Shown: positions 10,439-37,278 of the stretch, in pieces
Numbering within the stretch: position 1 is the first letter of the stretch
How the letters are laid out: every line of letters starts with the position of its first letter
Source of the DNA: an uncultured delta proteobacterium
Lineage (GTDB): Bacteria > Bdellovibrionota > FAC87 > UBA2466
Length of the DNA: 64,000 bases
Reading direction: 5' to 3'
Assembly (NCBI GenBank): GCA_963778115.1
Contig: CAVZSV010000004.1
Span: forward strand, 489,904 to 553,903
The notes under the pieces: generated by a model
Seen by the model: the letters and a program-made list of their open reading frames with translations, nothing else
Told to the model about the DNA's origin: nothing
Databases searched by the model: none
Translations under genes and position numbers: made by a program

Positions 10439-11020
10439 TTGCTCCAGGGGAAGCAATTTGGTATGAGGACCTTCCCAATGCGCGAAATGGCTTACATGAT
10501 CGGCCTCTTTCTTACCCTGTGCTCCTTCAGCCGAAGCATCGCGTTAAATGGGGATGGCCAGAAATTTTCAAAGCCTACTCCCTGTGGCGCCGATATCCAG
10601 AAATTAAGACGCCATCCGCTTTTCACTGAACAGGGAGAATTACTTCGATTGGCGTGGGTAGCCGAAGAAACCAAGGTAGGAAATCGGATCGACCCCTCTT
10701 ACAAAACTGACATTTCACGAAATCATTTCTATGAGGGGAACAGTTCAGAAAATTTCGCGGTCGCGTGTGCGTACGCGGCGGTACTATTTCAATTCCCCAG
10801 CCACACTATCTTGCTAAATCCAACTTCACTTGAGAGAGGAAGGTTTCAAGTGGCATCTTTGGGATTTCTTTCCAGCGTACAGTTCCAGATAATTCTTCAT
10901 CCCGACTTGCATTCGAGCCTTAATGAGGGGGAATGGAATGAACTTCAAGAATGGCTAACGCTGCTTCCTCGCACGTATCCCAAATCCGTCTTTATCGTGT
11001 ATGCGCCGGATTCCGATTAG
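10439..11020 (+). CDS. Secreted hypothetical protein
   Basis: 193-aa ORF with a signal-like MAYMIGLFLTLCSFSRSIA segment. Several possible starts (10439-10496). Convergent 4-nt overlap with the next gene. Confidence 0.45.
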   Translation: MLQGKQFGMRTFPMREMAYMIGLFLTLCSFSRSIALNGDGQKFSKPTPCGADIQKLRRHPLFTEQGELLRLAWVAEETKVGNRIDPSYKTDISRNHFYEGNSSENFAVACAYAAVLFQFPSHTILLNPTSLERGRFQVASLGFLSSVQFQIILHPDLHSSLNEGEWNELQEWLTLLPRTYPKSVFIVYAPDSD

Positions 11021-12207
11021 CGAACCCGTGGGACAACAAGAGTAATCCAAGTTCCTTTGCCTGCATAATTTCCCGCATCTACCGTTCCTCCGAAAGTAGC
11101 GACTGCCTTTTTTAATCCCTCCCATCCGGGACACTTGGAAAGATCAACACCCTGCCCGTCGGTAGAAATACCTAACCACAACCACTGGGATCGGTTCACG
11201 GTATCGGTGATGGCTTGGGCATCAAACTTAATAGACGCAGAAGATCGTTTACCTCGATACCTTCGAGTCTGTTCTGACTCTATGTCTTTGTCGATAAGTG
11301 CTGTCACCACTGATCCTAGACTCTTAAAGACAGGCTTTAGCATCGTTCCATCAACGGTCAGAGAGCCGCCGGAGAAAGACTCTGCCACTATGCGTTTATT
11401 GGCCAATTTCGATTGAAGCAACGTTAGGTAAAGTAACTGATTATAGAATACGTCGAGTTTGGGCTCCCACAACCGCTGTTGCGGTTGTGATTTCGTCGAT
11501 TGCGTTGTCTTGGCTAGAAAACTAGTAACCTGTTCGGGTATTCGAATCGCCGGAAAGAGTAGGAATAAGACAGAGCTGATGATGACGAGCACTAAAGGTG
11601 TCGCCCAAGCTGATATAAAGCTTCCGCGGGCTTTGCTTAATTCTTTATCTAGAGGGTAGTCGACTTGAAGGGTACCCACGACACGTCCGCCGTTACTGCG
11701 CAAGGGGGCGTAAGCGGTGACCCACTCATTACGCTGATCTTCATAAGGCCGAGTCGAAGTGGTGTCTCCGCTACGAATGCTTTTGATAGCCTCTTTAGTC
11801 CAGGGTAGCTCAATCCCTACAAAAGCATCTTTGCCAGAAAGGCCAAAGGCGATGGCTCGCTGATGCGCGGCCGGTGAGGAGAACCACGCTTGTACCAAAT
11901 TCGCGGATATCATTGGAGTAAGCGATTGAGATATTTTGCGAAGGCCGGCGCTAATACTGGCAGCAAAATCTGTTTTTCCCCCCCGTACCAACTCATTTTC
12001 AGTGATCGCAATTTCGCGCCCATCCCAAAGAGCGGCCGCCTTTTTGGCAAGCTGCTCCGCGTGGTATGACGAACTTTTTTCGAATTCCGAGACCGCACCA
12101 TGATAGCGCAAATCGGCCCAGCAGACGCTTAGAGCCACCAAGACCAATAAAATGGCGTAATCCATTTTGGTCACGATAGGAAAAGAGAATGGGGTAACTT
12201 CTTGCAT
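11017..12207 (-). CDS. Membrane sensor protein: Cache-like periplasmic domain + HATPase_c-like C-terminus
   Basis: Two TM segments flank a region ending WVTAYAPLRSNGGRVVGTLQVDYPLD (Cache-like). The C-terminus WLWLGISTDGQGVD...GGTVDAGNYAGKGTWITLVVP resembles a histidine-kinase ATPase. No clear phospho-acceptor His box. Confidence 0.5.
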   Translation of the reverse strand: MQEVTPFSFPIVTKMDYAILLVLVALSVCWADLRYHGAVSEFEKSSSYHAEQLAKKAAALWDGREIAITENELVRGGKTDFAASISAGLRKISQSLTPMISANLVQAWFSSPAAHQRAIAFGLSGKDAFVGIELPWTKEAIKSIRSGDTTSTRPYEDQRNEWVTAYAPLRSNGGRVVGTLQVDYPLDKELSKARGSFISAWATPLVLVIISSVLFLLFPAIRIPEQVTSFLAKTTQSTKSQPQQRLWEPKLDVFYNQLLYLTLLQSKLANKRIVAESFSGGSLTVDGTMLKPVFKSLGSVVTALIDKDIESEQTRRYRGKRSSASIKFDAQAITDTVNRSQWLWLGISTDGQGVDLSKCPGWEGLKKAVATFGGTVDAGNYAGKGTWITLVVPRVR

Positions 12208-12227
12208 AAGATTTTTGGGTGACTCAC

Positions 12228-12953
12228 TCAGAAAATTCTTAGTGTCACTCGTCGATTCTTTATCTGATTTTCGGGAATTGGCTGCCCCTTACTATCTCGG
12301 TTAGGAGCGATAGGTTCGCAATCCCCATGAGCCATCAGAACGGTTCGTTTGGAAAATTCTGGAGAAAGGTTCATGGCATAGAGAACATAAAGGGCCCGTT
12401 TCGCTGAAAGATCCCAGTTATCTTCGATGGTCTTGGTATGAATGGGAGTGTCATCGGTGTGCCCCTCAATGCCTAGTTTGTAAGGCGCCGGAATCTTCTC
12501 CAAAGTCTTAGCTAAAAGTCTCAAAATCTCAGTTCCGGCATCGGTCGGCCGGTACTCGCCGCTGGAAAAGAGAACTTTATCTTTGATCTCTACTCGCAGA
12601 CTGTCGTCTACCTGCTTTACACTAATCTGATCTTGCAGTTTTCTTTCGGTGACCCAAGCATTCAAATTTTGTTTTAGTTGATCGACCGGAGTTTTGGGCA
12701 TGTTTTCGTGGCGGATCTGAGCGACTAGTTTTCGAAACTCGTTCTGTTTTATCTGCTTATAGCTAAAACTGAACATCACCACGAAAAAGATGAATAGCAA
12801 CATCATCAGATCGCTTAAGCTTACGAGCCATAGATACTCGCCCGTATCTGGCATTCGTTTCGGCACGACTGATTTCACGTAGGGGATCCTTTGGTTAGGC
12901 GACTCTTCGTATCTCTTGCGTCTCTTCTGATGGAATTTGAGCGGAGTCCGCAA
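12228..12953 (-). CDS. motB: MotB/OmpA-family stator protein
   Basis: TM plug region LVSLSDLMMLLFIFFVVMF with the conserved Asp. OmpA-like end GHTDDTP...NWDLSAKRA...NRRVTLRIF. The start may be internal (M34, 12854). Confidence 0.75.
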   Translation of the reverse strand: MRTPLKFHQKRRKRYEESPNQRIPYVKSVVPKRMPDTGEYLWLVSLSDLMMLLFIFFVVMFSFSYKQIKQNEFRKLVAQIRHENMPKTPVDQLKQNLNAWVTERKLQDQISVKQVDDSLRVEIKDKVLFSSGEYRPTDAGTEILRLLAKTLEKIPAPYKLGIEGHTDDTPIHTKTIEDNWDLSAKRALYVLYAMNLSPEFSKRTVLMAHGDCEPIAPNRDSKGQPIPENQIKNRRVTLRIF

Positions 12954-13674
12954 AATATTCGGTGGGTTTGCGCTTTTCTAACAGCTCAAGCCATCGAATC
13001 ACTTGATTGTATCCATTCAATTCGACTTCGAGCACGCGCTCAACCTTTTGCTGCAGTGGGGTCCACACCACGAGCGAAAAGAAAAGGCCATAGAAAGTGG
13101 TGAGCAACGCCAAACTCATATGAGAACCTATCTGCGAAGGATCGGAAATGGATGACAGTAGTTCCACCATGCCTAAGATGGTTCCCAACATTCCCACTGA
13201 AGGGGCTAAACGGACGCCCATACCCAAGGCCCCCATGCACTGAAACAGGTGATTGTGAGTGCGATCCCTTTCAATCTCAAGCATCTCGCGGATATCTGTA
13301 GTAGGAATACGAATGGCCATTCGATCGATGACCTTCTGCACGTAATCGGAAACGCCTTTGGTCTCCAGATCGTCGAAAGCCTTTGCCCCTTCACTGTAAA
13401 ACAGACTCCCTACACGTTGTAAAAACACGGCCTCTTTTTCATGCTTTGTCTGCCTTCTAGACGCCGAAGTTCCAAATACCCAGCGAAACGTTCGAAATAA
13501 GATCGTCCAGTCGGAGCAAGTGATAACCAAAGCAATGGGACCAAGGCCGGTAAGCACCATCGCGGGCCAGTGAAAGATCCGAAAGGCTCCCGTGGCAAAG
13601 GCAGTCCCTTCAAAGTTGTACACGACTGCGAGGCAACCCAAGAGCCCCATGAGTCCAAAGATCCGCGTTATCAT
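12895..13674 (-). CDS. motA: MotA-family stator/proton-channel protein
   Basis: 259 aa. APSVGMLGTILGMVELL...MSLALLTTFYGLFFSLVVWTPL matches the MotA/PomA channel helices. Confidence 0.75.
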   Translation of the reverse strand: MITRIFGLMGLLGCLAVVYNFEGTAFATGAFRIFHWPAMVLTGLGPIALVITCSDWTILFRTFRWVFGTSASRRQTKHEKEAVFLQRVGSLFYSEGAKAFDDLETKGVSDYVQKVIDRMAIRIPTTDIREMLEIERDRTHNHLFQCMGALGMGVRLAPSVGMLGTILGMVELLSSISDPSQIGSHMSLALLTTFYGLFFSLVVWTPLQQKVERVLEVELNGYNQVIRWLELLEKRKPTEYFADSAQIPSEETQEIRRVA

Positions 13675-15422
13675 GCCATGGCCTCCCTAATGCGCCGAGT
13701 GAGAGAGACCCGGGCACTTTGTGTTGCTTCTTCCGACGCTCCCTTTGCGGATCGCAACTGACTTATCAGGAAACTCTTTCGTCTCGGCGAAAGGGCATCC
13801 AAAATGACATCGACGGTGTCTTGCGAACACGTCGCTAAAGCCATTGCAAGCTCTTCGTTGTCGACATCCGAGAGTATTTTTCGAAGTAAGTTATCCGGAA
13901 AGGAAGCTACGTCCTCTAGCTTAAATTTGTATTTTCTTAGCGTGGGAGAGATGTTGGGATTGGTGGTTTCAAGATCTCTGATGAGCTCCTCTTGATGGGT
14001 GCTCTCCGAAAGAACGGTTCCCCAGAAATCGACATCTTCGCTGGGAGAGCCGTAGAACCGCTGCGGCATCCGCTGTACCGAGGTTCTCACATCACGTTCT
14101 ATTTCCGCTATCTGGCTGAAGTTAATTTGCTGGACCGAGGGAACCTGAGCCAAGATCTCTTGTCGTTTGCCGGGCTCTAAAGTATCGAGCACCATCGCCG
14201 ATTGCCTTGCTTTCATAAAACGCAGCATTAAGCACACAGCGACGGGATTTTCCTGATTGGCCAGGGCCAATAGCTGCTCATTATTAAGACTCTGTAGAAA
14301 TCCAAAAAACTGCCGATCCTGCCAGTCTGCGGTCTCGGCAAATTCATCAAAGCTTTTTTCATGCTTTGCTAAAATTTCGTCGGGCTCCACAGCAGGGATA
14401 TCACTGCCCACGGGCCGAGCGATTTGCAAGCCATCCAAAAAGTTATCAAAAGCGGGTCCCGAGAGGACCGAATACAACTCATTCTGGACTTCGGCCGATA
14501 GCTTTGCCCAATACTGCGAAAAAGCACCGGACCGAGTCAGGAATCGTTCCAAAAGACGTTTCCGACGGAAAGCGACTTCTGCCTTTTCATCCAATGCCTC
14601 GTCGTTCTTAGACGCCGATGCCGTGCGGTAACCTAAGGTTCTAGCAGCTTCAAGGATCTTGGGGATGGCCTGCTCATGGCCGCTTGCCGATCTTCGGCGC
14701 TTTGCTCTTGGAGAGGAGGAAGGGGCTTGGTAATTTTTTTCCCGACGGGTACCCACAACTAAAAGAAGAGCCAACAAGAAAACGACCAGCATCAGTAAAA
14801 TGAGCCCGGCCCACCGGGCAAACCGCCAGAGCACCTCTTCTACCGTGGGAGGAGGCGGCGGCTCGGGCTTTTTCACTTCTTCTTTGGGAGGCGGCAACGG
14901 CTTTTCCACTTCCTTGACTGGCTTTAGCATCGGCATCTGGGAAAAGCTGACCACCGAACGCCTGGGAAAATTGGTACCCATATAGTTTTGAGTGAGCATT
15001 TTAGCGCGCGTTACTAGTCCGGGCGCCAGACTCTCATCAAGACCAATTTGCGCTATCACCATTCTAAGGACGGGAGTTTCGACGTTTCGAAACACTTGAC
15101 GCTCATGCCGGGGAAGTTGGGGGGATTCCTTTCTCTCCACTTCGGGCTCAAAGCCAGGCATGACCGGGATCGGATCTTGGTGTTTAGATTCGACGAGCTG
15201 TTCGTCGAGGGTTTCTCCTTCGATCAGTTCCCTATGGTTTTCCGTCTCAACTTGAGCGTTCACTTGGACCAGAAACTGTTCGCGCGGCATCATATGGCCC
15301 AGCAAATTATCCAAATCGGTTTGGACTTTGCTCTCCACAGCGAAAGGATCCAAAGTGGCGTAGGCGTAGGAAGGCAGCCACGCCGAAATAATGATGAGTA
15401 AAATGAAAAGAAGCCACTTCAT
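13671..15422 (-). CDS. Membrane-anchored FliG-like (FliG middle + C-terminal / MgtE_N-like) protein with periplasmic N-terminal domain
   Basis: 583 aa. Signal peptide, ~190-aa exported part, Pro/Glu/Lys linker, TM WAGLILLMLVVFLLALLLVVG. Then QENPVAVCLMLRFMKARQSAMVLDTLEPGKRQEILAQV and FKLEDVASFPDNLLRKILSDVDNEELAMALATCSQDTVDVILDALSPRRKSFL, which read like the FliG_M and FliG_C signatures. 4-nt overlaps with both neighbours. Confidence 0.55.
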   Translation of the reverse strand: MKWLLFILLIIISAWLPSYAYATLDPFAVESKVQTDLDNLLGHMMPREQFLVQVNAQVETENHRELIEGETLDEQLVESKHQDPIPVMPGFEPEVERKESPQLPRHERQVFRNVETPVLRMVIAQIGLDESLAPGLVTRAKMLTQNYMGTNFPRRSVVSFSQMPMLKPVKEVEKPLPPPKEEVKKPEPPPPPTVEEVLWRFARWAGLILLMLVVFLLALLLVVGTRREKNYQAPSSSPRAKRRRSASGHEQAIPKILEAARTLGYRTASASKNDEALDEKAEVAFRRKRLLERFLTRSGAFSQYWAKLSAEVQNELYSVLSGPAFDNFLDGLQIARPVGSDIPAVEPDEILAKHEKSFDEFAETADWQDRQFFGFLQSLNNEQLLALANQENPVAVCLMLRFMKARQSAMVLDTLEPGKRQEILAQVPSVQQINFSQIAEIERDVRTSVQRMPQRFYGSPSEDVDFWGTVLSESTHQEELIRDLETTNPNISPTLRKYKFKLEDVASFPDNLLRKILSDVDNEELAMALATCSQDTVDVILDALSPRRKSFLISQLRSAKGASEEATQSARVSLTRRIREAMA

Positions 15423-16084
15423 TTATATCGCTCCAAGAGCGTCTTAACTTGGGGATTCGTAGGCTCAAGGGACTGCGCTTTTTCCCAGGATTTCTTGGCC
15501 AAGTCCTTTTGATTTTGGACGTACATGAGGCTACCTTTCATGATCCATCCGCGCACATAGTCAGGCTTTTTCCTTAAGATCTCTTCGACATCTTCACTTG
15601 CTTCAAAAAATTTCCCTTGGTTATAAAAATGGTTGGCTTCGATAACGAGCTTGTCCGTGTCGTCATATTCCACCACGAGGGGTGCCAGAGGAGGCAGTGA
15701 TTGCGGCTTTCGATCTTTGTCGGCTACTTTCTGAGTGTCAAAATCATCCGCGTCATCGTCGTCATCCGCATCAGCGTCCTCTTTAGACGATTTGGACTTT
15801 TTCTTGGAAGCCTCTCTTTTATGATCGGCTTTATCATCATCAGAATCATTGTCGGAGGTCGTGTTCTTACTGGGATAGACAGGCTTTAGATCAGACAAAG
15901 GAATCTCTATTTTATAGTTCCCGTTGTTCTTAAATCCGATGTCTCCTACCAAAGTCTTAGTTCCCCATGGCGTAACCAACTCTAAATTGTCGCCGGTTTC
16001 TTTCACCGAAAATTGATCAAGTGCGGAGCTATCCGCTGAAACGAGAAGTACTAAGGGCAGTAACAAGTAGCTTCTTTTTCCCAT
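15419..16084 (-). CDS. Secreted TPR-like protein with poly-acidic linker
   Basis: Signal peptide. D/K/S-rich low-complexity stretch (DADADDDDDADD). C-terminal TPR-like helices (YNQGKFFEASEDVEEILRKKPDYVRGWIMKGSL...). Confidence 0.55.
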   Translation of the reverse strand: MGKRSYLLLPLVLLVSADSSALDQFSVKETGDNLELVTPWGTKTLVGDIGFKNNGNYKIEIPLSDLKPVYPSKNTTSDNDSDDDKADHKREASKKKSKSSKEDADADDDDDADDFDTQKVADKDRKPQSLPPLAPLVVEYDDTDKLVIEANHFYNQGKFFEASEDVEEILRKKPDYVRGWIMKGSLMYVQNQKDLAKKSWEKAQSLEPTNPQVKTLLERYK

Positions 16085-16100
16085 CGTCGTGATTTCGCCG

Positions 16101-17045
16101 TTATCTTCCTAAGGAGAATCCAACATGGAATCCCGCGTATCCTTTCACTTCGTTCATGGGGTCGGTTCCCAGAGGCAGTAAATAGACCACCTCCGCTCCA
16201 AGCACCGCAAAGGATCCTAGGAACAACTCGTATGCTCCCCTGACCGCGATTCCTTTTGCCGATCCCGAAAATCCATAGCCCGCTCCAAAATCAAAGGAAT
16301 AAGCAAGGCCACTCAGTCCAAACCTCCCGTTAAAGGCCAGTGTGGGATCAATATCGATTAGAGTCGAAGGGCCTCCGGAAACCATGCCGATATCGAGGCC
16401 GCCTTTTCCAAAGCCGATGTCTTCCAAAAGGAGCACATTGGCCCCTGTCAGTACGGCAGTGCCTCCTCCATCAGAGCTTTTTGAAAGGTCCGTTCCCAGA
16501 CCGAACAGTGCCAAAAACTGAACCGCGCTATCGGAAATATTCAAAGCGGGAATCGTAAAATGCTCCGCTTGAATGACTTGCCCTTGTGGATTCGAATAGA
16601 CCACGACTTGGGCTAGCAGATTTAGACTCGTTCGATAGAGATCTACGGTGATAAAGGCTTCGACAGGATATTTGCTGCCAATCTTTTTGAGCGTCTCCTG
16701 ATCAGGAGCCCCTTTAGTGATGATGACTCTGTCGTCTTCTACCGTCAGCCTGGGAGATCGGCATTCGGAACACGATCTAACATTGGCAATTCGGCGTGCC
16801 GCCATTCCTTTTAGGATCTCGGCCTCTACCACGTCGCTAAAATCTTGTTCCAAAGGCAAATTGGAATGGACCGAAAAAATAGCCACCGATGCCGGCCGCG
16901 GTACGATCCTTGAATACCATTCAGAAATTTCATCCCCGACGGTAGCCGCCGCTTTAAATTCAGCTTCTTCGGGAGGGCGAGCGTAAGAGGAGAAGCTACC
17001 GAAGACAGAAGTCAAAAGGAGTAGAGGTAAAATAAGTTTTTTCAT
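16101..17045 (-). CDS. Secreted protein, probable outer-membrane/periplasmic scaffold
   Basis: Signal peptide MKKLILPLLLLTSVFGSFSSYA. The C-terminal half is Gly/aromatic-rich alternating strands (beta-barrel-like). First gene of the mot-containing operon. Confidence 0.5.
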   Translation of the reverse strand: MKKLILPLLLLTSVFGSFSSYARPPEEAEFKAAATVGDEISEWYSRIVPRPASVAIFSVHSNLPLEQDFSDVVEAEILKGMAARRIANVRSCSECRSPRLTVEDDRVIITKGAPDQETLKKIGSKYPVEAFITVDLYRTSLNLLAQVVVYSNPQGQVIQAEHFTIPALNISDSAVQFLALFGLGTDLSKSSDGGGTAVLTGANVLLLEDIGFGKGGLDIGMVSGGPSTLIDIDPTLAFNGRFGLSGLAYSFDFGAGYGFSGSAKGIAVRGAYELFLGSFAVLGAEVVYLLPLGTDPMNEVKGYAGFHVGFSLGR

Positions 17046-17102
17046 AGGGTCGCTTTAACTCGACGCATCACAAAACGACATTATTGACACTCACTACCGA
17101 TT

Positions 17103-17116
17103 TACTTATCGGAATT
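17103..17116 (-). promoter_or_regulatory. Sigma28-like -10 box (AATTCCGATAAGTA) ~60 nt upstream of the 17045 operon start
   Basis: Shares the core TTCCGATAAGT with sites at 10384 and 37123. Only a weak -35 (TGAAAC) element. Confidence 0.35.
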
Positions 17117-17192
17117 TGTCGTTCGTTTCATAAAGCGTACAAATTAGAGAAAAAGTGGGGGGATCTTTGGTTTGAGGTTATGATCAAAAAGT

Positions 17193-17918
17193 ATGCGAAA
17201 GGTCCGATATCTCGCAGTCCTTCTAGCCACTTTCGCGGGAACTGCATGGGCATTGCCTGAACGCGTCGGGTCGATCGATATCATGATGGGGCCGCCCCAG
17301 ATAGTGGCGCTCGAAGCACAGGTCGTGCTCTGGAAACATTGGCAGGTTGGATTCGGTTACGGAATTATTCCTGGGGTTGGACCGGCGCTTAGCAACATCA
17401 TTAACATCCCTTCGGAGCAGTACACGATTCCAGGCGGATCGATCTACAAATTGGTTCCCTCAGCGACTTATGGACTGAGCTCGCTTTCGCCCTTTATCCG
17501 CTTTTTTCCGCGCGATGATAATTTTTATATCCAACTGACCTACGGATTCTTGCGTGCGACCGCCGACGTAACGGCAACGCTTTCGCCGGTGAGTACCACA
17601 CTCCCCATTTCCGGTTCGCTCAGTGGAAACATTACCGTCCTCCAATCGGTACCGACCATAGCGGTGGGAAACCTTTGGATGAGTAAAGCCTTCTTTTTTA
17701 ATTTAAGCCTTGGGGCCTCCTTCTTTTTTACCACTACCGCCAGCGTTACTTTGAGCGGCTTTGTTCCGGATGCAAGTAGTTCCACTAGTTCCAACCAAGC
17801 GGCCATCAATACCGTGACCACTCAGTTACAAAACTCCATCGTCCAGTCGGTAAACTCGGTCAAATCGCAGCTATTTCTCATCCCATCCATCAATTTCGCA
17901 ATGGGTATTGTCCTTTAA
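17193..17918 (+). CDS. Secreted beta-rich (outer-membrane-like) hypothetical protein
   Basis: 241 aa. Signal peptide MRKVRYLAVLLATFAGTAWA. Alternating hydrophobic strands. Confidence 0.5.
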   Translation: MRKVRYLAVLLATFAGTAWALPERVGSIDIMMGPPQIVALEAQVVLWKHWQVGFGYGIIPGVGPALSNIINIPSEQYTIPGGSIYKLVPSATYGLSSLSPFIRFFPRDDNFYIQLTYGFLRATADVTATLSPVSTTLPISGSLSGNITVLQSVPTIAVGNLWMSKAFFFNLSLGASFFFTTTASVTLSGFVPDASSSTSSNQAAINTVTTQLQNSIVQSVNSVKSQLFLIPSINFAMGIVL

Positions 17919-17992: not shown

Positions 17993-18547
17993 ATGCCCCT
18001 TTCCCTTGACCTGCCAGACTCCAATGTCCGGCCGAAAGAATTATTCATCACTTTTTCCAAGATTGGCCTACAAGGCTTTGGGGGCTGTATGCCCTGGGTC
18101 TATGCCGAAATCGTGGAAAAAAGAAAATGGCTTAATCCCCAGGAGTTCGCTGAACTTTTGGCACTGGGACAGATTCTCCCGGGGGCTAACGTCACTAATT
18201 TTTCCGCCATGCTGGGGTATCGATTTTGCGGATTTCGCGGCGCAATCGCGGCTTCTTTGGGGCTCTTTCTTTTTCCTCTGATCGTAGCCATTGGATTTGC
18301 CACTTTGTACGGCCACTATGGCCACCTCGAAGCCGTACAAGGGGCACTCAGGGGGGTGACCGCCGTTGCCTGCGGTCTTATTATCAGCACCGGCATCAAA
18401 TTGGCGAAAGCCCAACCTCGTAGTCTTAAAGCGCTGGTCACGGGCCTTTTGGTATTGGTGGGAATAGGAATTTTTGCCTTTCCCTTACCCTGGGTGGTTT
18501 TCGTCTTAGCGCCTCTTAGCCTTCTTGCGGAGGCAAAGCTAAGATGA
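17993..18547 (+). CDS. chrA: Chromate ion transporter (CHR) family, N-terminal half-size subunit
   Basis: FITFSKIGLQGFGGCMPWVYAEIVEKRKWLNPQEFAELLALGQILPGANVTNF is the CHR signature. ATGA overlap with the second half. Confidence 0.8.
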   Translation: MPLSLDLPDSNVRPKELFITFSKIGLQGFGGCMPWVYAEIVEKRKWLNPQEFAELLALGQILPGANVTNFSAMLGYRFCGFRGAIAASLGLFLFPLIVAIGFATLYGHYGHLEAVQGALRGVTAVACGLIISTGIKLAKAQPRSLKALVTGLLVLVGIGIFAFPLPWVVFVLAPLSLLAEAKLR

Positions 18548-19062
18548 ATCTTCTATTGGTACTAGCATTGCACTTTCTTTTTCTGTCACTCATCGCGATC
18601 GGCGGTGCGACAGCCGCCCTGCCTGAAATGCACCGGGTATTGGTAACACAATTGCATTTAATGGCAGACGACCAGTTCGCTCATCTCTTTGCCATTTCGC
18701 AAGCGACTCCAGGCCCCAACGTTATCTTTGTGGGTCTTTTCGGCTGGCAGACAGCGGGCCTTGCCGGAGCTTTGGTGAGCCTGTTTGCGATGTGCGGACC
18801 GGCGAGCTTATTTGCTATTGGATTCGAGCGTTTTGGTTTCGGTCATAGAAACGATCATTGGTATGTCCTGATACGTCGGACGCTGACCCCCATAGCGATT
18901 GGTCTGTTGCTCTCCTCCGCAGTTTTGTTGATGAAGACCGCGACTAAGCCTCTGGCACTATTCCTTACCCTACTCTCGGCAACCGTACTTCTTAGAACGC
19001 GAATGAACCCGCTGTGGTTGATAGGCTTAGGAGCGGTGGTAGGCGTAATGGGATGGGTATAA
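18544..19062 (+). CDS. chrA: Chromate ion transporter (CHR) family, C-terminal half-size subunit
   Basis: FLSLIAIGGATAALPEMHR...ISQATPGPNVIFV is the second CHR repeat. Confidence 0.8.
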   Translation: MNLLLVLALHFLFLSLIAIGGATAALPEMHRVLVTQLHLMADDQFAHLFAISQATPGPNVIFVGLFGWQTAGLAGALVSLFAMCGPASLFAIGFERFGFGHRNDHWYVLIRRTLTPIAIGLLLSSAVLLMKTATKPLALFLTLLSATVLLRTRMNPLWLIGLGAVVGVMGWV

Positions 19063-24457: not shown

Positions 24458-27400
24458 TTACTCAAGAAGGGTGATCGACATCTCCGCGGCTTGTTGAATT
24501 ATGGCTCTGGGATCTTGCTCTCTAATTCGACGAAGTTGGGGAAGCGCGACCTTTGCTCCTTGTCCCCAATCGGGAAGTTCTTCAATGGCCTCTCTCTTTT
24601 TGTAGGCGATAGGTGAATCTAGCAACGGCAACAGTTTATCAACGGGCATTGCCGTATGACGTACCAGATAGTGATGGGCAAGTTCACGAATCTGTTGGTC
24701 AGGATCAGAGGTGAGTCGTTGCATGGTAGGCGCTATGTTTGGATTTAATACCAGTTTTTCGACAAGCTCTGAACGAATAGAGGGCTCGGTTTCTCTTTGG
24801 AGCAGTTCCGAAAGAATTGAAGGGTCGGAAATCCTATCGATAAGCTCGTGGCGTATGGCAGCGGTGGGCTCACGCCGTAGCCAATCGCCAAAGGCAGTTT
24901 GGTCCTCAACTTCGTCGTGTCCATAGGTAGCGGCACTTGTGAAAATGATGGCTCCGTAATGCCGTTTGCGCTCACTCTCGAAACGACTAAACTGGTAGAC
25001 ACTTTCCGAACCCCTTTTTGCTAGTGCCGACAAGGCCGTTGAACCAGTTTCAGGATCGTCACTTGCCTTATTTAGACAATCCACCACATCAGGATCCCAA
25101 ATGTCTTTATCTCCCAAGGCGTAGAGTGCCGCGATTCTCACCTCCTTATTCCCGGTCTTCGCAAGTGCAATCAGAGTCGAAGTAATAGAAGGCAAGTCCG
25201 ATTTGGCCCATCCCAGATAGAAAATGGCATTCGTCTGCTCCTCACCGGTGGCACTTTGCGAAAGTTCGAGCAATTTAGCAATGCCCAAATCTCCAAAACC
25301 GCTCAAGGCTTCTACCGCTTTGGCTCTCTGTGCCGGATGCCCCAGGGCTTCGATTGCTATAGCCAATCCCTCAGGGCCAGAGTTTCCCAAATTCGCTAAG
25401 AGCAAATCTTTAAGGTTATCGTCTCCCCGAGCGTAAAGCGCTTTATAGGCCGCAATAGTTTTTGAATCGGGGCCGAAGGCTCCGAGTCCGCGGATGGCGG
25501 AATTGCGTATCGCAGTATCTTTGTCATAAAGCGCCTTTAATAAGATGTCCCCAGAGTTAGGATCCAATTTTCCAAGAGCGGGCAGTGCGACCTCTCGCAA
25601 AAACGTATCGCCCGTCGCATCGACAATGCGCAAAGCTTTTGCGAGTTCCGGAGTTGATTTGCCTATCTGATTTAAGAGCATCGTTGCTTGGCGCTTATCA
25701 TTGATATCACCACTTTTTAATTCTTCGATGAGCTTTGGAACCGCGGCGTCGAGTCTCACATGGGTCCCGAGCATGACTTGAAAAGCCGTCCACTTATAGG
25801 GCTTGTTGCCTTCAACATCGGTCGTATCCAGCATTCCCAAGATCGCTTCTAACTTCTCAGGCGTCCATTCTCCGATATAGGGCTCATAGCCCAACCTAAA
25901 CACATCTTCATGCGTGTTCATAAAACCGCCCGAGTGGTGTTCCCCGTGCACAAGAATTTTTGGCAGCATCTTGGGGCCAAAACCCTGCAAAATGGAAAGC
26001 ATACGGTTTCGATATTCCGTGGGCCTTTCCCGAGAGTGTTTCATCAAATAATTGAGTCCCAAATCCCCGTCCCCTTTAGCCTGGACGAAAGCATTGAGAG
26101 CTGCCTCGCGCGTTAGCGGACCAGGATGTTCAATACTTTCCTCAATCGCCTCTTTGATCGACTTGCGCATTCCCTCCGACATTGTCTTATCATCGGCGAA
26201 GTACCTTCCCAGTTTGGCAATGAGCATGGATCTGCCGCTGTCTCGAAGTCCTGGCTTTTGAAGGGACGTAAGTATCATTGCGACATCGCCGTCGAGGTCT
26301 TCACGCAAAAAACGTCTAAGCTCGTCGCGATCGGGACGTTCGGATAGCCCCCCGAGCAGACGATGGCCAAGTTCTTTTGCCGTTTTTGCAAGAGGTCCGT
26401 TCTTGATTCCTTTTAAGTCTTCGTAAATTTGATGGTACCTTGCCCCGGGCAAGACGGTTACGGGAACGGATTCCAACGCATTTAATGCGGTTTTTTGCCG
26501 CTGCGGGTCCTTCAACGCATCTAACACCTCCCAATGATCTCTTAGAGAGTCCCACTGTTTTAGCTTCGCCAGCGAAGAAAAAGAGAGAAGGCGCAAGACC
26601 TCGTTCGTCGACGAAAGATTCCTGTTCAATGCGGCGACTACATTAGAAAGTTCGTCGTCTTCTAATTTTGCCTTTCCCAAAGCCGTTATCGCTCGAGCCT
26701 GCAATAGGGGGTCCGAATTCCCTGCCATATCGACAAGGGTAGGTATCACTTTTGAGCGGACTCCGAACGGGGCCGATGCAAGTCTGCCCAGCTCCGTCAG
26801 CGCGCGAACGCGGTACTGGGGATCTAGCGTTGAATCGTTTGCGATCTGCATTAGTACGCGAGCAATTTCATCACCATGAGCCTCAGTTCCCATCGCGGAT
26901 AATAGCGTTATCGCCTCTGCGGAAACGTCAGGATGTGTCGCAAGTTGGGAAAGCGTCCTTAAAACCGATTCGAAGTGATCGCCCAATAATCCATCTCGAT
27001 GCATTTGGCTTAGCGCGGGAGCGAGATCACTTAGCAGCTTTGCCGAGGTTGTCCCGGACAATAGCCCCACAATGGTATCTTGTGTTTTTTTGTCCTGTTG
27101 TCCGATTTGGGAAAGCGCGTGTAATGTTTTCCCCTGAAGTTCGGAATCCGAACTGGAATGTTTTGGGAGAAAATTGAGCAAAGCATCAGTAGTCGAATGA
27201 GCGGCGCGCCCCATGTTTCCTAACGCGACAATGGCATTCGGCTGTGTTTGCGGACTCGATAAAGCGGTTTTGACTTCGGGAAGAAAGTTTTCACCGCCAG
27301 TCCCTAAGGCCGAGATAGTACGCAGAGCCGCGTTCTGAGGGGTAGAATCGTTATGAGAGAGCATTTCTTTGAGTTGCACGTTGAGATCCCCGCGCGGGGT

Positions 27401-27592
27401 GTGCGCAATCAGAAGTGACCTCAAAGCCTCTTCCAGTCGGCCTGAAGTTTCTAGCGCGCCCAAAATCGGAAATAGAGGTGTACTTTGTTCTTGAGTGAGG
27501 CTGTCTCCTTCGAGTAGCAGCGAAAGTGCAACAGCGGCTTGTGTGCGAGCGGCCTCTAAAGACTGGTCTTTGAGACCGATAATGCGAAGCAT
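24458..27592 (-). CDS. Large HEAT/PBS-lyase-repeat protein
   Basis: 1044 aa. Many d..vR..A..aLG-type repeats (EVRIAALYALGDKD, TAIRNSAIRGLGAFG, LQARAITALGKAK). Confidence 0.7.
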   Translation of the reverse strand: MLRIIGLKDQSLEAARTQAAVALSLLLEGDSLTQEQSTPLFPILGALETSGRLEEALRSLLIAHTPRGDLNVQLKEMLSHNDSTPQNAALRTISALGTGGENFLPEVKTALSSPQTQPNAIVALGNMGRAAHSTTDALLNFLPKHSSSDSELQGKTLHALSQIGQQDKKTQDTIVGLLSGTTSAKLLSDLAPALSQMHRDGLLGDHFESVLRTLSQLATHPDVSAEAITLLSAMGTEAHGDEIARVLMQIANDSTLDPQYRVRALTELGRLASAPFGVRSKVIPTLVDMAGNSDPLLQARAITALGKAKLEDDELSNVVAALNRNLSSTNEVLRLLSFSSLAKLKQWDSLRDHWEVLDALKDPQRQKTALNALESVPVTVLPGARYHQIYEDLKGIKNGPLAKTAKELGHRLLGGLSERPDRDELRRFLREDLDGDVAMILTSLQKPGLRDSGRSMLIAKLGRYFADDKTMSEGMRKSIKEAIEESIEHPGPLTREAALNAFVQAKGDGDLGLNYLMKHSRERPTEYRNRMLSILQGFGPKMLPKILVHGEHHSGGFMNTHEDVFRLGYEPYIGEWTPEKLEAILGMLDTTDVEGNKPYKWTAFQVMLGTHVRLDAAVPKLIEELKSGDINDKRQATMLLNQIGKSTPELAKALRIVDATGDTFLREVALPALGKLDPNSGDILLKALYDKDTAIRNSAIRGLGAFGPDSKTIAAYKALYARGDDNLKDLLLANLGNSGPEGLAIAIEALGHPAQRAKAVEALSGFGDLGIAKLLELSQSATGEEQTNAIFYLGWAKSDLPSITSTLIALAKTGNKEVRIAALYALGDKDIWDPDVVDCLNKASDDPETGSTALSALAKRGSESVYQFSRFESERKRHYGAIIFTSAATYGHDEVEDQTAFGDWLRREPTAAIRHELIDRISDPSILSELLQRETEPSIRSELVEKLVLNPNIAPTMQRLTSDPDQQIRELAHHYLVRHTAMPVDKLLPLLDSPIAYKKREAIEELPDWGQGAKVALPQLRRIREQDPRAIIQQAAEMSITLLE

Positions 27593-30869: not shown

Positions 30870-30892
30870 TTTGGACTTAAGGTGGACTTACG
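30870..30892 (+). promoter_or_regulatory. 23-bp repeat TTTGGACTTAAGGTGGACTTACG (candidate integrase arm-type site), copy 1
   Basis: Identical copy at 45145-45167 in the same orientation. Contains an internal GGACTTA x2. Ends 13 nt before the int ATG. Confidence 0.4.
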
Positions 30893-30905
30893 GAGTGGGG
30901 ACACC

Positions 30906-32177
30906 ATGAAAGCAAAGATTGGGAACCGCCTTTTAGACTCCCTGAAAACCGAAGCGAAGGCGTACGAAGTGTGTGATACCGAACTTGCGGGCTTCATGGT
31001 CCGCGTCCAACCCTCCGGTGCAATGACATATATATGCAGCTACCGGCTTAAGGACGGACGCCGCCAGAGGATGACGCTCGGGAGAACATCGCTCTTCACT
31101 CCTACCCAAGCACGTGACTGGGCCTTCTCTATTATGGCCGACGTGAGAAAAGGATTGGATCCGGCGTCCTCCAGAAAAACTGCGAAGGCAGAATCGCTCC
31201 TAATTTTCCTGGACGAGATATACGGACCGTGGGTATCGGCCCATCGAAAAAGAGGCAAGGAAACGCTTAAGCGCCTTAAATCCTATTTTTCAGATTTTCT
31301 GCGAAAGCCCATATGTGAGATCACGCCGTGGGCAATTGAAAAGTGGCGCACCCAAAAACGAAAAGACGGATTGAAGCCGATCAGCGTAAACCGCGAGTTG
31401 TCCGCTCTGAGATCCGCTCTGTCTAAGGCTGTAGAGTGGGGGCTGATCGAGACCCATCCTTTGGCGAAGGTAAAACCCTTCAAAACGGACAAGAAAGGAA
31501 TCGTCCGCTACCTAAGTGAAGAGGAAGAGGGCCGTCTGCGCATTGCACTGGATGATCGTGAAGAGAAGCTGCGCGTTGCTAGAGATAGTGCGAATGAATG
31601 GAGGAGGATCCGCGACTATCCTGAATATCCGAACTTACGCAGCCAATACTTTGCTGATTATCTGAAACCACTGGTCATCCTATCAATTAACACCGGACTG
31701 AGACGAGGCGAGCTTCTCAGTTTGTCGTGGCGGAACGTCGACTTTACCCGATCCGTACTAACGGTAGCTGGGACCGCAGCTAAGAGCGGAAGTACACGCC
31801 ACATTCCTCTGAATAAAGAGGCTCGACTTCTTCTCGGAGAATGGAAACATCAGCACCCCACCTTGCCCGACGCGTTTCTATTCACGAACGGAAGCGGCGA
31901 GCGGCTTGGTGAACTAAGGAAATCATGGCATAGCCTTCTGGCGCGCGCAAAGATCGAGAATTTTCGATGGCACGACTTGAGACACCACTTCGCAAGCAAG
32001 CTCGTCATGGCAGGGGTTGATCTAAATACCGTAAGAGAGCTTCTTGGGCACGCCGATATTACGATGACCCTGCGCTACGCCCACTTAGCCCCCCACATTA
32101 CAGCAGCAGCCGTAGAAAAAATTCAGTGGCAGCCGAAACCCCTTCAAGCTTTGGAACCCACTTGTGCCGAAGCCTAA
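30906..32177 (+). CDS. int: Tyrosine recombinase/integrase, P4-like with DUF4102 arm-binding N-terminus
   Basis: The N-terminus AYEVCDTELAGFMVRVQPSGAMTYICSYRLKDGRRQRMTLG is DUF4102-like. Catalytic blocks RRGELLSL, WHDLRHHFAS, LLGHADITMTLRYAH. ATG 30906 follows a GGAG; the ORF track starts at GTG 30882. Confidence 0.9.
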   Translation: MKAKIGNRLLDSLKTEAKAYEVCDTELAGFMVRVQPSGAMTYICSYRLKDGRRQRMTLGRTSLFTPTQARDWAFSIMADVRKGLDPASSRKTAKAESLLIFLDEIYGPWVSAHRKRGKETLKRLKSYFSDFLRKPICEITPWAIEKWRTQKRKDGLKPISVNRELSALRSALSKAVEWGLIETHPLAKVKPFKTDKKGIVRYLSEEEEGRLRIALDDREEKLRVARDSANEWRRIRDYPEYPNLRSQYFADYLKPLVILSINTGLRRGELLSLSWRNVDFTRSVLTVAGTAAKSGSTRHIPLNKEARLLLGEWKHQHPTLPDAFLFTNGSGERLGELRKSWHSLLARAKIENFRWHDLRHHFASKLVMAGVDLNTVRELLGHADITMTLRYAHLAPHITAAAVEKIQWQPKPLQALEPTCAEA

Positions 32178-32985
32178 AAAGCCATTAGGGTCAAATTCCG
32201 GCAATGCACAGTTGAAAAAGGAAATACTCGCGCTTGTCGGCTACAAATCGGGCTTCGATTCGGGTGCCTTGGAACTTCTTGGCGAGATCGGCCTGTTGGG
32301 AAAATGGCACCCAGAACAGAAATCCCGAATGGATCCCGGCCCCAGGGCCGCTGAAAGAGCGCAAGTTAATTCAATGATCGAGAGCATAAGCGAGACCCTT
32401 TCTAAGTTCGATACCTTAGGGGAAAACATAGTTCGAGGAATTGGTTTTCAAAACTACGAGGGGAAGTTCCTAAACCGAATCGATCGAAGAGCTTTCGAAA
32501 GACGAAACCTCCGGTATCCACCAATACCTCGCCGTTCAAAAGGATCCCTTTTAAAACGTGTGATACGGCCATTTTTTAGCGGATCTATCCGCGATCCATT
32601 TTTCTTAACAAAATTAATCCTAACCCTATCGAAGAGAGACTTTTTGAAGCTAAGAAAGAAATATGCTTCCCTACCAACCAGGAGCGGACCGACAAAAAAC
32701 GCCGAGCACTACTTAGAACAGCAGCTTTTCAAGCTTTTTGATACGTATTGCACGGATGAAGATTTCTCGCGCGAGGGAATGATTGAAAACGAATACGTGA
32801 ATCGAAAAGCTAAATTCGTTTATTTATCCATGAAGACTGTAGGTGTATCCCCTCGCGACTTAGGTTCTGCAAATCGAGGAACAAAATATTCGGGGAGATT
32901 GGGAAGAGCCGCTTTCGAGCATTCAAAAGACCCAATGTCATGGTTAACAGCCCATTCTGTACGCGTCGGAGTTATAAATAAGTAG
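32164..32985 (+). CDS. Hypothetical basic protein (island)
   Basis: 273-aa ORF with a GTG start that overlaps the int stop by 14 nt. No motif recognised. Confidence 0.45.
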   Translation: MPKPKKPLGSNSGNAQLKKEILALVGYKSGFDSGALELLGEIGLLGKWHPEQKSRMDPGPRAAERAQVNSMIESISETLSKFDTLGENIVRGIGFQNYEGKFLNRIDRRAFERRNLRYPPIPRRSKGSLLKRVIRPFFSGSIRDPFFLTKLILTLSKRDFLKLRKKYASLPTRSGPTKNAEHYLEQQLFKLFDTYCTDEDFSREGMIENEYVNRKAKFVYLSMKTVGVSPRDLGSANRGTKYSGRLGRAAFEHSKDPMSWLTAHSVRVGVINK

Positions 32986-33110
32986 CCATTACAATACTTT
33001 GACAGTTGAACCCACCAATTTCGTTTTTTAACCGTCCGAATCGATTTTCCAAAGGCGGTAGATATCCCTACACGATCCGGAATGAACCGAATCGCTAGCG
33101 GAGATATCAC

Positions 33111-33329
33111 ATGGTACCAAAATCAATCTTCAACGAAAAAGAGGCCGCCGAATACCTGGGGCTCTCACCCTCCACATTGAGACAAAGTCGATTTCACGGA
33201 AAAAGAGAAAAACACTTACCTCCTCCACCGTTTATCAAAGTAGGAAGGTGCATTAGATACCTAAGAAATGACCTAGACTTATGGCTAAATAAACATCGAA
33301 TTGAGCAACAAGAAGGTCAGAGCCGATGA
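33111..33329 (+). CDS. AlpA/excisionase-like helix-turn-helix regulator
   Basis: 72 aa. EAAEYLGLSPSTLRQSR...FIKVGRCIRYLRNDLDLWL is an HTH_17/AlpA pattern. ATGA overlap with the primase gene. Confidence 0.7.
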   Translation: MVPKSIFNEKEAAEYLGLSPSTLRQSRFHGKREKHLPPPPFIKVGRCIRYLRNDLDLWLNKHRIEQQEGQSR

Positions 33330-35797: not shown

Positions 35798-36099
35798 GCG
35801 CCCACCAATTTCTTCAGGAGCTGAACAGTCTCGGCATACGGGTTAAGTCGGTGGGAGAGAATTTGAGTGTGGCAGCTCCCAAAGGCGCGGTCACAGAATA
35901 TATATTGAAAAGACTAGCCACCATGAAAAGGGAGCTTCTAGTAATTTGCCCACCGGAAATTCCGGCTCTTCCAATCGATACCGTATATTCCTTTTTGTCG
36001 GACTGCATAGAAACAACTCCGTCGGAAGGATGGAACTTTCCCGACCGGCCTAAGTACACGGTGCGCGAGCTGGCGCTTTATGCTGTGTTCTGTGAATGA
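35794..36099 (+). CDS. Small island protein with TubC_N-like N-terminal motif
   Basis: 101 aa. ATGA overlap with the primase. FLQELNSLGIRVKSVGENLSVAAPKGAVTEYILKRLATMKRELL resembles the TubC_N-type docking/winged motif. Confidence 0.45.
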   Translation: MSAHQFLQELNSLGIRVKSVGENLSVAAPKGAVTEYILKRLATMKRELLVICPPEIPALPIDTVYSFLSDCIETTPSEGWNFPDRPKYTVRELALYAVFCE

Positions 36100-36295
36100 T
36101 CACGGCGGATAGGTCAGATATCTCAGTGCATTGAGGTATTCAACTATTGCGTTAGATGCTTACTGCCACACGCCAGATTTCTTCCCGGCTGGACCTGGGA
36201 TGGAAGAAAAAATTACGTATGGATAGGTTTCCGATGCACGAAGCTAGGATAAAAACAGAAAGATACCGTTGTCTTCTTTTCCAATGAAAGGTTTC

Positions 36296-36907: not shown

Positions 36908-37107
36908 TTTCCGCGCTCCTTCTCTATCTGTTTCCGGCTCCATATAACAAATTGATCCAGCGCTGTCTGAATAACGTCAGTCGTTGTCCATCCGTATTCA
37001 TCGGCAAGCGCGTCCAATGCCTTCATTAGGCGGACCGGTAGCCGCATTGACATCATTTTCTTTTCTCCCTGAGTAAACTCTCTTTTTGGTAGATTAAACT
37101 TTGCCAC
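36904..37107 (-). CDS. Ribbon-helix-helix (CopG/Arc-like) regulator
   Basis: 67 aa. MSMRLPVRLMKALDALADEYGWTTTDVIQTALDQFV is an RHH pattern. GTG start preceded by AAGGAGA. Confidence 0.6.
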   Translation of the reverse strand: MAKFNLPKREFTQGEKKMMSMRLPVRLMKALDALADEYGWTTTDVIQTALDQFVIWSRKQIEKERGK

Positions 37108-37122
37108 GTCTTCTCCTTATAT

Positions 37123-37136
37123 AACTTATCGGAATA
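37123..37136 (-). promoter_or_regulatory. Sigma28-like promoter -10 box (TATTCCGATAAGTT) with TAAA 16 nt upstream
   Basis: The minus strand reads TAAA-N16-TCCGATAA-N18-GTG(RHH). The 14-mer is identical to 10384-10397. Confidence 0.4.
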
Positions 37137-37140
37137 TATA

Positions 37141-37169
37141 TACATTGTATTTACCGTATTTACAATGTA
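37141..37169. promoter_or_regulatory. Inverted repeat TACATTGTA-N11-TACAATGTA (candidate RHH operator)
   Basis: Read directly. Lies in the AT-rich region just upstream of the RHH-nuc operon. Confidence 0.4.
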
Positions 37170-37278
37170 TTACATATTGCGTTATAATACTATTAAGGGA
37201 AGACCTTGCCTATTCGCAAGTTTTCACTTCCTAACGTGAACATTGCTCAAACGCAGATAAGGGAACTGCGTATTTGCG

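Follow-up and report, generated by a model that had tools for sequence, protein, structure and literature searches.

A 64,000-nucleotide stretch of DNA from an uncultured delta proteobacterium (assembly GCA_963778115.1, contig CAVZSV010000004.1, positions 489,904 to 553,903), hereafter the window, carries a compact gene module in which a flagellar-type MotA/MotB pair stands next to a 583-amino-acid (aa) membrane-anchored protein with FliG domains. A sequence-only reading of the window had drawn attention to six minus-strand open reading frames (ORFs), here labelled g1 to g6 in order of transcription, and all six are present where it placed them.

Layout and inheritance of the module

The features are as follows (window coordinates; TPR, tetratricopeptide repeat; TM, transmembrane).

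12228-17918: conserved module overall, comprising the 241-aa secreted protein, the outer-membrane protein, the TPR protein, the 583-aa g3, MotA and MotB
17193-17918, plus strand: gene for the 241-aa secreted protein, divergent from g1 and its neighbour by tblastn
17046-17192: divergent intergenic region of 147 bp, holding CGCTTTATGAAA and CCGATAAG
17126-17137, minus strand: subgroup 12-mer CGCTTTATGAAA, which recurs upstream of g1 in L001 and L013
17105-17112, minus strand: CCGATAAG box in the intergenic region upstream of g1
16101-17045, minus strand: g1, 314-aa predicted outer-membrane protein (AlphaFold2 and Foldseek)
15419-16084, minus strand: g2, 221-aa periplasmic TPR protein (Pfam TPR_2)
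13671-15422, minus strand: g3, 583-aa FliF(RBM3)-TM-FliG-like protein, predicted rotor subunit (Pfam, hhalign, AlphaFold2, Foldseek)
14937-15338, minus strand: g3 residues 29-162, periplasmic domain predicted to resemble a ring-building motif (RBM; AlphaFold2, Foldseek)
14742-14843, minus strand: g3 residues 194-227, single TM helix (hydropathy, AlphaFold2)
14331-14600, minus strand: g3 residues 275-364, helical region at the position of the FliG N-domain (Foldseek)
13698-14330, minus strand: g3 residues 365-575, matching the middle and C-terminal domains of FliG, torque helix and its R548 included (hhalign, Pfam)
12895-13674, minus strand: g4, 259-aa flagellar-type MotA (Pfam MotA_ExbB)
12228-12878, minus strand: g5, MotB, probably 216 aa (Pfam MotB_plug and OmpA)
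11017-12207, minus strand: g6, 396-aa membrane protein with two TM helices, 20 nt downstream of MotB, a neighbour outside the conserved module

The 4-nt overlaps described earlier are visible as ATGA at two junctions, where the g2 stop meets the g3 start and the g3 stop meets the g4 start, and they indicate that g2, g3 and g4 are translationally coupled. The longest g5 ORF starts at TTG 12953; MotB most likely starts at GTG 12878 (216 aa, AAGGA 9 nt upstream), and its orthologue in L008, the closest relative, has 216 aa.

Twelve related loci were compared (four taken from genomes, four retrieved by contig look-up and four of metagenomic origin, the metagenome scan yielding at least four new loci), each counted as far as its contig reaches. 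MotA and MotB follow g3 in 12/12 loci, the TPR gene lies upstream of g3 in 10/10, g1 is present in 9/9, and a divergent gene for a protein of ~240 aa is found in all seven loci that reach that far (L002, L003, L005, L006, L008, L013 and L014), adjoining g1 on the opposite strand with 28-73% identity (tblastn). The flanks of the loci are wholly different (ribosomal S2/EF-Ts/ScpAB, MFS/PALP and others), and no flagellar gene was found within 10 kb of the cassette in the related loci. Retention of the gene order in relatives had been set beforehand as a test; the cassette proved syntenic in the 12 loci amid unrelated flanks. The gene set is inherited as a unit, and this co-inherited module lies outside any flagellar gene cluster. 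Source labels of the loci (Pseudobdellovibrionaceae, Bacteriovoracia and ‘Deltaproteobacteria’) point to Bdellovibrionota-like metagenome-assembled genomes.

The conserved block is not identical with the six genes originally grouped together, because g6 recurs only in L008 (50% identity) and is absent from the other loci; the TPR, g3, MotA and MotB genes are conserved as proposed, and the divergent 241-aa gene had been missed. The description of g6 as a Cache-like sensor with an HATPase-like end is not supported: its Cache match is below threshold (16.4 bits, Pfam cut-off 27.7), no HATPase domain was matched in Pfam, NCBIfam or PDB sequence searches, and g6 has no PDB sequence match. A g6 sensor kinase was rejected as a part of the system, since g6 has no significant domain match and is conserved only in L008.

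Within the window, a Pfam scan of all other ORFs of at least 150 aa found no flagellar family, in agreement with the earlier statement that the 64 kb hold no fliF, fliM, fliN, flhA, rod or hook genes. The immediate flanks of the cassette encode a helicase, a pyridoxal phosphate enzyme, a peptidase and chromate transporters, and no flagellar regulon surrounds the block. The setting bears on the possibility that the module is an accessory of an ordinary flagellum, namely an additional set of stators that brings its own ring for docking or scaffolding, together with periplasmic and outer-membrane scaffolds, and assembles around or beside the canonical motor. We regard this as unlikely, as no flagellar gene adjoins the module in any locus. 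What speaks for it is that MotA and MotB are of flagellar type, that TPR and outer-membrane proteins are in general typical motor scaffolds, with MotX/MotY, PflA/PflB and FlgO/FlgP as analogues, and that motAB pairs of Bdellovibrio and like organisms also stand apart: according to PMC11323537, their genomes carry 1-4 motAB pairs at sites other than the flagellar clusters, and all three pairs of B. bacteriovorus are reported to contribute to one flagellum (citing Morehouse 2011). The supplement of the same paper lists B. bacteriovorus motAB1 and motAB2 only as two-gene clusters.

Sigma-28-like -10 variants occur in several upstream regions, which would also fit a flagellar accessory. The CCGATAAG box that had been noticed upstream of g1 is indeed there; its interpretation as a sigma-28 promoter is not supported. 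The heptamer CCGATAA occurs 13 times in the window, the box is without a good match at -35, and relatives do not keep it upstream of g1 (absent in L001-L003). The box was for these reasons rejected as evidence of flagellar regulation, and the lack of a consistent -35 element and of conservation counts against the accessory. No 8-mer common to all upstream regions was found. Two subgroup-specific 12-mers, CGCTTTRTGAAA and TTCTACCSGAAA, lie 80-150 nt upstream of g1 (sites at window 17126-17137 on the minus strand, L001:51, L013:6260, L002:8247, L003:8139 and L014:1296), with ~0.07 chance occurrences expected across all sequence compared. The two 12-mers are possible regulator sites.

More distant relatives extend the picture. 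Two members (E 1e-25 to 1e-44) have the same order of TPR, FliG-like, MotA and MotB genes, and at L009:4479-7376 and L010:2985-6186 the cassette lies downstream, on the same strand, of genes for an extracytoplasmic function (ECF) sigma factor (Sigma70_r2/r4_2) and for two unknown proteins of 255-285 aa and 335-354 aa. This linkage hints at regulation of the envelope-stress type, and the placement of remote versions behind an ECF sigma factor is a further point against a flagellar accessory. A third architecture is seen at L012:6389-10037 on a 2.1-Mb contig, where MotA (289 aa) and MotB (232 aa) are followed by a 678-aa FliG_C protein; its neighbours are a CarboxypepD_reg/Plug receptor gene and a Flg_new repeat protein.

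Two further observations concern these contigs. At L011:2716-5706, a 996-aa protein joins FliM, DUF4116, FliG_M and FliG_C in one chain; it is a different rotor-protein fusion, unrelated to the cassette. A 1204-aa HEAT-repeat protein (DUF7133, GSDH and cytochrome c matches) is encoded near the cassette in L006, and a 1044-aa HEAT-repeat protein is encoded in the window (24458-27592, minus strand), which may be coincidence.

The membrane-anchored FliG-like protein g3

The cytoplasmic end of g3 was originally read as FliG middle and C-terminal domains, and this is borne out. FliG_M matches residues 382-453 (27.2 bits, Pfam cut-off 25) and FliG_C residues 483-581 (54.3 bits, cut-off 23.3). In a profile-profile comparison of the g3 family with nine canonical FliGs, hhalign aligned g3 residues 365-575 with FliG residues 109-320, the middle and C-terminal domains, with a probability of 99.8% (E 1.6e-30). 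The only PDB sequences matched by the family profile are FliG, among them the engineered FliF-FliG fusion 8z4d. Against the fliG equivalog model TIGR00207, g3 scores 62.7 bits, below the cut-off of 226.7, in a match that spans only residues 367-580.

Unlike FliG, a soluble protein whose N-domain docks on the C-terminus of FliF, g3 is anchored in the membrane by the TM helix 194-227. Hydropathy peaks at residues 4-22 and 205-223 (score of the latter 3.34) delimit a signal peptide, ~170-190 exported residues and one TM helix, as first described, and the AlphaFold2 model agrees. A Lys/Glu/Pro-rich linker precedes the TM helix and a disordered cytoplasmic linker (228-274) follows it. Behind its membrane helix, g3 has genuine middle and C-terminal domains of FliG.

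The layout of signal peptide, exported domain, Lys/Glu/Pro linker, TM helix, variable linker and cytoplasmic region of ~300 residues is shared across the family. A first, word-index homologue search gave 21 relatives, all of 527-594 aa. An exhaustive profile search raised this to at least 97 representatives (50% identity clusters) at E <= 1e-30, with a long tail of 530-640-aa proteins lower in the list that match both the exported and the cytoplasmic parts; canonical FliGs (~335 aa) appear in the same search only at about 1e-22.

The AlphaFold2 model of g3, built from the family alignment, has a mean predicted local distance difference test score (pLDDT) of 76, with structured parts at 82-93. 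Its exported domain runs α (29-42), β (50-71), loop, β (107-128), α (134-151), β (156-162), so that two long, 22-residue strands form a hairpin whose loop bears an invariant M-P-G-F-x-P-E motif; from residue 275 onwards the cytoplasmic part is all-helical. Foldseek places FliG at ranks 1-13, with full-length FliG (3hjl, 8umx_B, 8wiw) matched over 305-339 columns, and the RBM3/S-ring/β-collar region of FliF at ranks 15-31 (E 2e-3 to 2e-2, probability 1.00, TM-score normalized to the target [TMt] 0.41-0.46). The FliF chains matched are 8ftf_A (E 1.9e-3), 6sd1_A, 7d84_A and 8z4g_1. The sporulation protein SpoIIIAG (5wc3) gives a weak match (E 0.23). Its ring shares the ring-building motif with an inserted β-hairpin that forms a vertical β-barrel ring; unlike g3, SpoIIIAG has neither a FliG domain nor a stator and belongs to another cellular context.

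A profile of the periplasmic domain built from 17 sequences has no match in Pfam or among PDB sequences, and no FliF, YscJ_FliF or SctJ model of Pfam or NCBIfam matches g3. A sequence-level link of this domain to FliF, SctJ or SpoIIIAG was dismissed on that ground, and the likeness of the exported domain to FliF is therefore one of predicted fold. The domain would correspond to FliF RBM3 with its β-collar hairpin; g3 carries one RBM-sized domain, and RBM1 and RBM2 are absent.

The sequence-only reading had the FliG N-domain replaced by the membrane anchor. This part needs revision, as the N-domain is probably not replaced: a ~90-residue helical region (275-364) lies at its position, and the Foldseek alignments of the model span full-length FliG. 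By hhalign the region does not align with the FliG N-domain, and N-domain homology was not obtained in that way; the correspondence is one of predicted structure. Taken together, g3 appears to have the topology and domains of a FliF reduced to RBM3 and collar, joined via a second TM helix to FliG (signal peptide or first TM helix, periplasmic RBM, TM helix, cytoplasmic FliG). By every feature tested it resembles an MS-ring and FliG in one chain, despite failing the FliG and FliF equivalog tests. A protein with its own putative ring-building domain and full FliG middle and C-terminal domains would compete with FliG and not act as a scaffold, which again argues against an accessory of the flagellum.

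The FliM-binding EHPQ motif is degenerate in the family. Positions 391-394 hold E (10) or Q (8), a variable residue, P (13) and a variable residue (n = 20), and g3 of the window has ENPV. The resulting E/Q-x-P-x fits the absence of fliM and fliN nearby. Loss of FliM-binding motifs with retention of the MotA-facing helix would also suit a regulator or parking site for stators, in which g3, without mechanical output, would be a decoy in the membrane that keeps MotAB units, from a pool of its own or a shared one, in an inactive state, or would act as a sensor of load or ion-motive force; binders of MotA or FliG that control the motor are known (YcgR, EpsE; PMC3000366). Such a decoy would need neither a periplasmic ring domain that is conserved and bears an invariant loop at its tip, nor a coupled TPR protein and two outer-membrane proteins, nor its own co-inherited motAB with a co-diverged interface, and we consider it highly improbable.

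The nearest published precedent for g3 is the FliF-FliG fusion of Chlamydiaceae (Bergeron 2016, PeerJ, PMC4768692), a natural protein which likewise places a shortened FliF-like periplasmic region, a TM segment and a FliG-like domain in one chain in a non-flagellar setting. The chlamydial protein is about 330 aa long, has an SctJ-like RBM2 and one further RBM-like region, carries a FliG_M-like domain only, without the torque C-domain, has no MotAB partner and is proposed to work with the injectisome (PMC4768692). In contrast, g3 has 583 aa, a predicted RBM3/collar-like domain, FliG middle and C-terminal domains, an adjacent stator and no SctJ/YscJ match. Engineered FliF-FliG fusions of Salmonella and Vibrio still form rings in the membrane (bioRxiv 10.1101/2023.02.06.527414; PMC11481574); these are laboratory constructs of about 945 aa that join full-length FliF (RBM1 to RBM3) to FliG within a complete flagellar system. 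Searches limited to a library of open-access and bioRxiv papers turned up no account of a MotAB cassette that includes a FliG anchored in the membrane.

Stator, interface and envelope partners

The MotA-like and MotB-like assignments are upheld by Pfam domains and PDB matches of flagellar (‘FIT’ class, PMC12505986) rather than Exb/Tol type. g4 (MotA_ExbB, 74 bits) has four TM helices and a cytoplasmic loop of ~100 residues between TM2 (about 33-51) and TM3 (about 150-172); its PDB sequence matches are MotA and PomA only. Its best NCBIfam models are PomA, MotP and MotA, with tolQ (26.5 bits) and exbB (18.4 bits) far lower, and it stays below the equivalog cut-offs (PomA NF006527, 67.7 against 341 bits; MotA TIGR03818, 43.4 against 303.8 bits). 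g5 matches MotB_plug (39.8 bits, cut-off 24) and OmpA (39.5 bits, cut-off 27.2); its parts are a plug, one TM helix that bears the channel Asp, and a peptidoglycan-binding domain of OmpA type, the TM motif LSD aligning with the YAD motif of B. subtilis MotB. The PDB matches of g5 are MotB, PomB and MotS, and the nearest NCBIfam models are MotD, MotB and MotS, all below their equivalog cut-offs. The pair is a flagellar-type MotA/MotB by these sequence features, with plug, channel Asp and peptidoglycan anchor. As in the flagellar stator (MotA5B2/PomAB), the cytoplasmic loop of g4 is long, and the two conserved prolines (P173 and P222 in E. coli MotA) are kept along with an acidic residue at the E98 position.

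Equivalents of PomA P151, P199, T158 and T185/186 are invariant in the cassette MotA family (the prolines being P158 and P206 of g4). The invariant threonines T165, T192 and T193 of g4 align with PomA T158 and T185/T186, which we take to line the Na+ site of PomAB. The cassette motor might, on this alignment, be sodium-coupled, which we offer as a lead only.

In canonical motors, as described in PMC12505986, MotA R90 pairs with FliG D288/D289 and MotA E98 with FliG R281 (E. coli numbering); the charged residues of the E. coli torque helix that face MotA are R281, D288, D289 and R297. Both partners were compared at these positions (41 cassette MotAs, 20 g3 relatives). The E98/PomA-E96 position is E or D in 39/41 cassette MotAs, whereas the R90/PomA-R88 position is Tyr in 40/41. 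On the g3 side, R548 is invariant (20/20), position 549 is R or K in 18/20 and position 560 K or R in 19/20; the positions equivalent to D288/D289 (554/555) hold N/S/E and Q/L/M, and the acidic pair is absent. The equivalence of R281 and R548 is approximate because the alignments (hhalign, hmmsearch) put R281 one residue before R548. This pattern would leave one canonical charge pair in place on both partners and the other lost on both. Replacement of R90 and D288/D289 on both sides suggests a private stator-rotor interface, which weighs against service to a standard flagellar motor. The remote cassettes and the alternative architecture (L012) share the Tyr-Tyr of MotA, the Arg-Arg with which the helix begins and the periplasmic motif near the N-terminus, and they too lack the acidic pair.

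The likely envelope partners are the products of g1, g2 and the divergent gene. The 241-aa protein has a signal peptide ending AWA and is β-rich, with no match in Pfam, PADLOC or PDB sequences. In g2, a signal peptide and a small N-terminal domain are followed by a linker dense in charged residues (Asp/Lys) and, towards the C-terminus, by TPR repeats (TPR_2, 29.7 bits), so that the TPR protein with a poly-acidic linker noted earlier is recognizable in the translation. g1 has no Pfam domain; it belongs to a family of 26 proteins encoded on the same contigs as g3 relatives. Its AlphaFold2 model (26 homologues, mean pLDDT 83) comprises, after a signal peptide, a periplasmic α/β domain (~27-166) with invariant C92 and C95 and a C-terminal eight-stranded β-barrel (~175-312). 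In Foldseek, the N-domain matches the C-domain of LpoB (4q6l, TMt 0.67) and TolB-N, and the barrel matches the OmpA TM domain, OmpW, PagL, OprF-N, NspA and OmpX. As modelled, g1 is an outer-membrane barrel with a periplasmic domain.

These parts invite comparison with other machines built on an ion-driven inner-membrane A5B2 motor and a dedicated energy-carrying partner, namely TolQR-TolA-Pal/CpoB, ExbBD-TonB, AglRQS-Glt, GldLM and ZorAB (PMC9389320). The tol-pal operon likewise includes a TPR protein and OmpA-like and TolB-fold proteins. The A subunits of the other 5:2 motors are generic (ExbB/TolQ) and their partners couple in the membrane or periplasm, whereas the cassette has a flagellar-type A subunit and a cytoplasmic FliG. 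The cassette also lacks the composition of Tol-Pal or ExbBD-TonB, with tolQ and exbB far below cut-off, ExbD matched at E 0.68, and TonB_C and TolA domains absent.

The module could then be a non-rotary transducer of Tol-Pal or TonB type, in which g3 forms an arm and no closed ring, and its FliG-like domain, cranked by single MotAB units, exerts a pull on the TPR protein and the outer-membrane protein that serves to maintain the outer membrane or to constrict it. The parts run parallel to tol-pal (motor, inner-membrane partner, TPR protein like CpoB, TolB-N/LpoB-like outer-membrane protein, OmpA-like domain), and the ECF sigma association suggests an envelope-stress function. That such systems coexist is indicated by the window itself, where a TonB_C protein (1077-1718) and an ExbB/TolQ-type MotA_ExbB protein (2127-2825, 108 bits) are encoded on the minus strand (1077-2825), ~10 kb from the cassette, so that the genome has a generic 5:2 motor besides the flagellar-type one. 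The known Tol and Ton partners, however, couple via a TM helix inside the A5 ring and not via a cytoplasmic FliG domain, the exported domain is predicted to fold like a ring-builder that bears a collar hairpin, and the MotA is not TolQ/ExbB-like. We think this transducer doubtful, and somewhat less probable than the flagellar accessory.

A Zorya or other defence system was considered and set aside. Zorya combines a ZorA with a long tail, ZorB and effectors (ZorC/D/E). PADLOC found no defence-system signature in the cassette, in g4 or the other genes, beyond generic ZorB/MotB similarity in g5; the zorB model scores much lower than the flagellar models, and a ZorA-like protein is absent.

A proposed stator-rotor machine and other genes of the window

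The evidence favours the original proposal, namely a compact machine of the cell envelope that is separate from the flagellum, pairs a stator with a rotor-like part and is organized around a FliF-FliG-like fusion. We give a probability of roughly 0.55 to the reading that the module encodes a self-contained ion-driven stator-rotor machine made from flagellar motor parts, which is not part of a flagellum and whose ring-rotor passes force to the outer envelope. Its more specific form, a free-standing rotary motor in which MotAB turns a single-chain FliF/FliG ring without type III export, rod or filament and so drives an outer-envelope process, is put forward more tentatively, at a little short of even odds. 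Such a motor could have arisen from the flagellar motor by loss of parts, or it could be a living relative of the rotor-stator module out of which that motor was put together.

In the proposed mechanism, g3 would oligomerize through its FliF-RBM3/β-collar-like domain into an inner-membrane ring, with the FliG-like domains ringed beneath the membrane; FliF itself assembles into rings of roughly 33-35 subunits. Fixed to the cell wall, MotA5B2 units would conduct H+ or Na+ and exert force on the FliG-like torque helix by way of the diverged interface, and the g3 ring would turn, or be loaded, under this force. The machine would have neither an export apparatus nor a chemotactic switch, because RBM1 and RBM2 (which house the export gate in FliF), the EHPQ motif and fliM, fliN, flhA and rod genes are all missing, as are hook and filament genes nearby. 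Mechanical output would leave through the periplasmic collar, with the invariant MPGFxPE loop at its tip, to the TPR protein and the two outer-membrane proteins, partners that the flagellar core does not have. The end use would most likely be a task in the outer envelope (tethering or remodelling of the outer membrane) or surface movement, and not rotation of a filament; a role in the envelope is suggested by the linkage to an ECF sigma factor and by the likeness of the parts list to Tol-Pal, and surface motility is also possible.

Several points weigh on the other side. The RBM3 fold match is moderate (E about 2e-3, TM-score about 0.45), was made with a monomer model and has no sequence support, and ring formation is itself deduced from the monomer fold. 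The FliG-N-like region is undetectable by sequence (hhalign), and the acidic position of MotA is less regular in the remote cassettes. According to PMC11323537, Bdellovibrionota-like lineages are usually flagellated and have 1-4 motAB pairs, so a flagellar role is possible.

To our knowledge, the flagellar stator-rotor pair has so far been found only within the flagellum, and all other 5:2 motors (Tol, Exb, Agl, Gld, Zor) that we know of have generic A subunits and couple in the membrane or periplasm. If the proposed machine exists, torque generation by FliG and MotA is usable outside flagella; as a free-standing rotary motor, the cassette would add a seventh functional class to the 5:2-motor machines. 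Its rotor, minimal, compact in genetic terms and made of one protein, would lend itself to structural and single-molecule work, and an old question of flagellar evolution would become testable, namely whether a rotor-stator module can stand and work by itself, apart from the type III export core. The cassette may account as well for part of the ‘extra’ motAB pairs seen in predatory Bdellovibrio-like bacteria.

The remainder of the window holds several features of separate interest. Directly beside the cassette lies a split pair of chromate transporters (17993-19062, plus strand; 184 and 172 aa), and a fused two-domain chromate transporter of 392 aa is encoded 32 kb from it (51136-52314, minus strand). 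A probable integrated mobile element occupies 30882-45289, where the GC content drops to 0.43-0.47. It includes a phage-type integrase (30882-32177), a Toprim primase-like protein (33326-35797), a PLD-family nuclease (36296-36943) and several unknown ORFs, and its end adjoins a tRNA gene (45216-45289, minus strand). A 368-aa protein with HATPase_c fused to a C-terminal PilZ domain (46018-47124, plus strand) suggests signalling linked to cyclic di-GMP. At 61100-63468 (minus strand) are genes for the α subunit of D-lysine 5,6-aminomutase and a B12-binding/OAM-dimer subunit (amino-acid fermentation), adjoined by genes for a MoxR-type AAA ATPase and a VWA protein (59362-61103).

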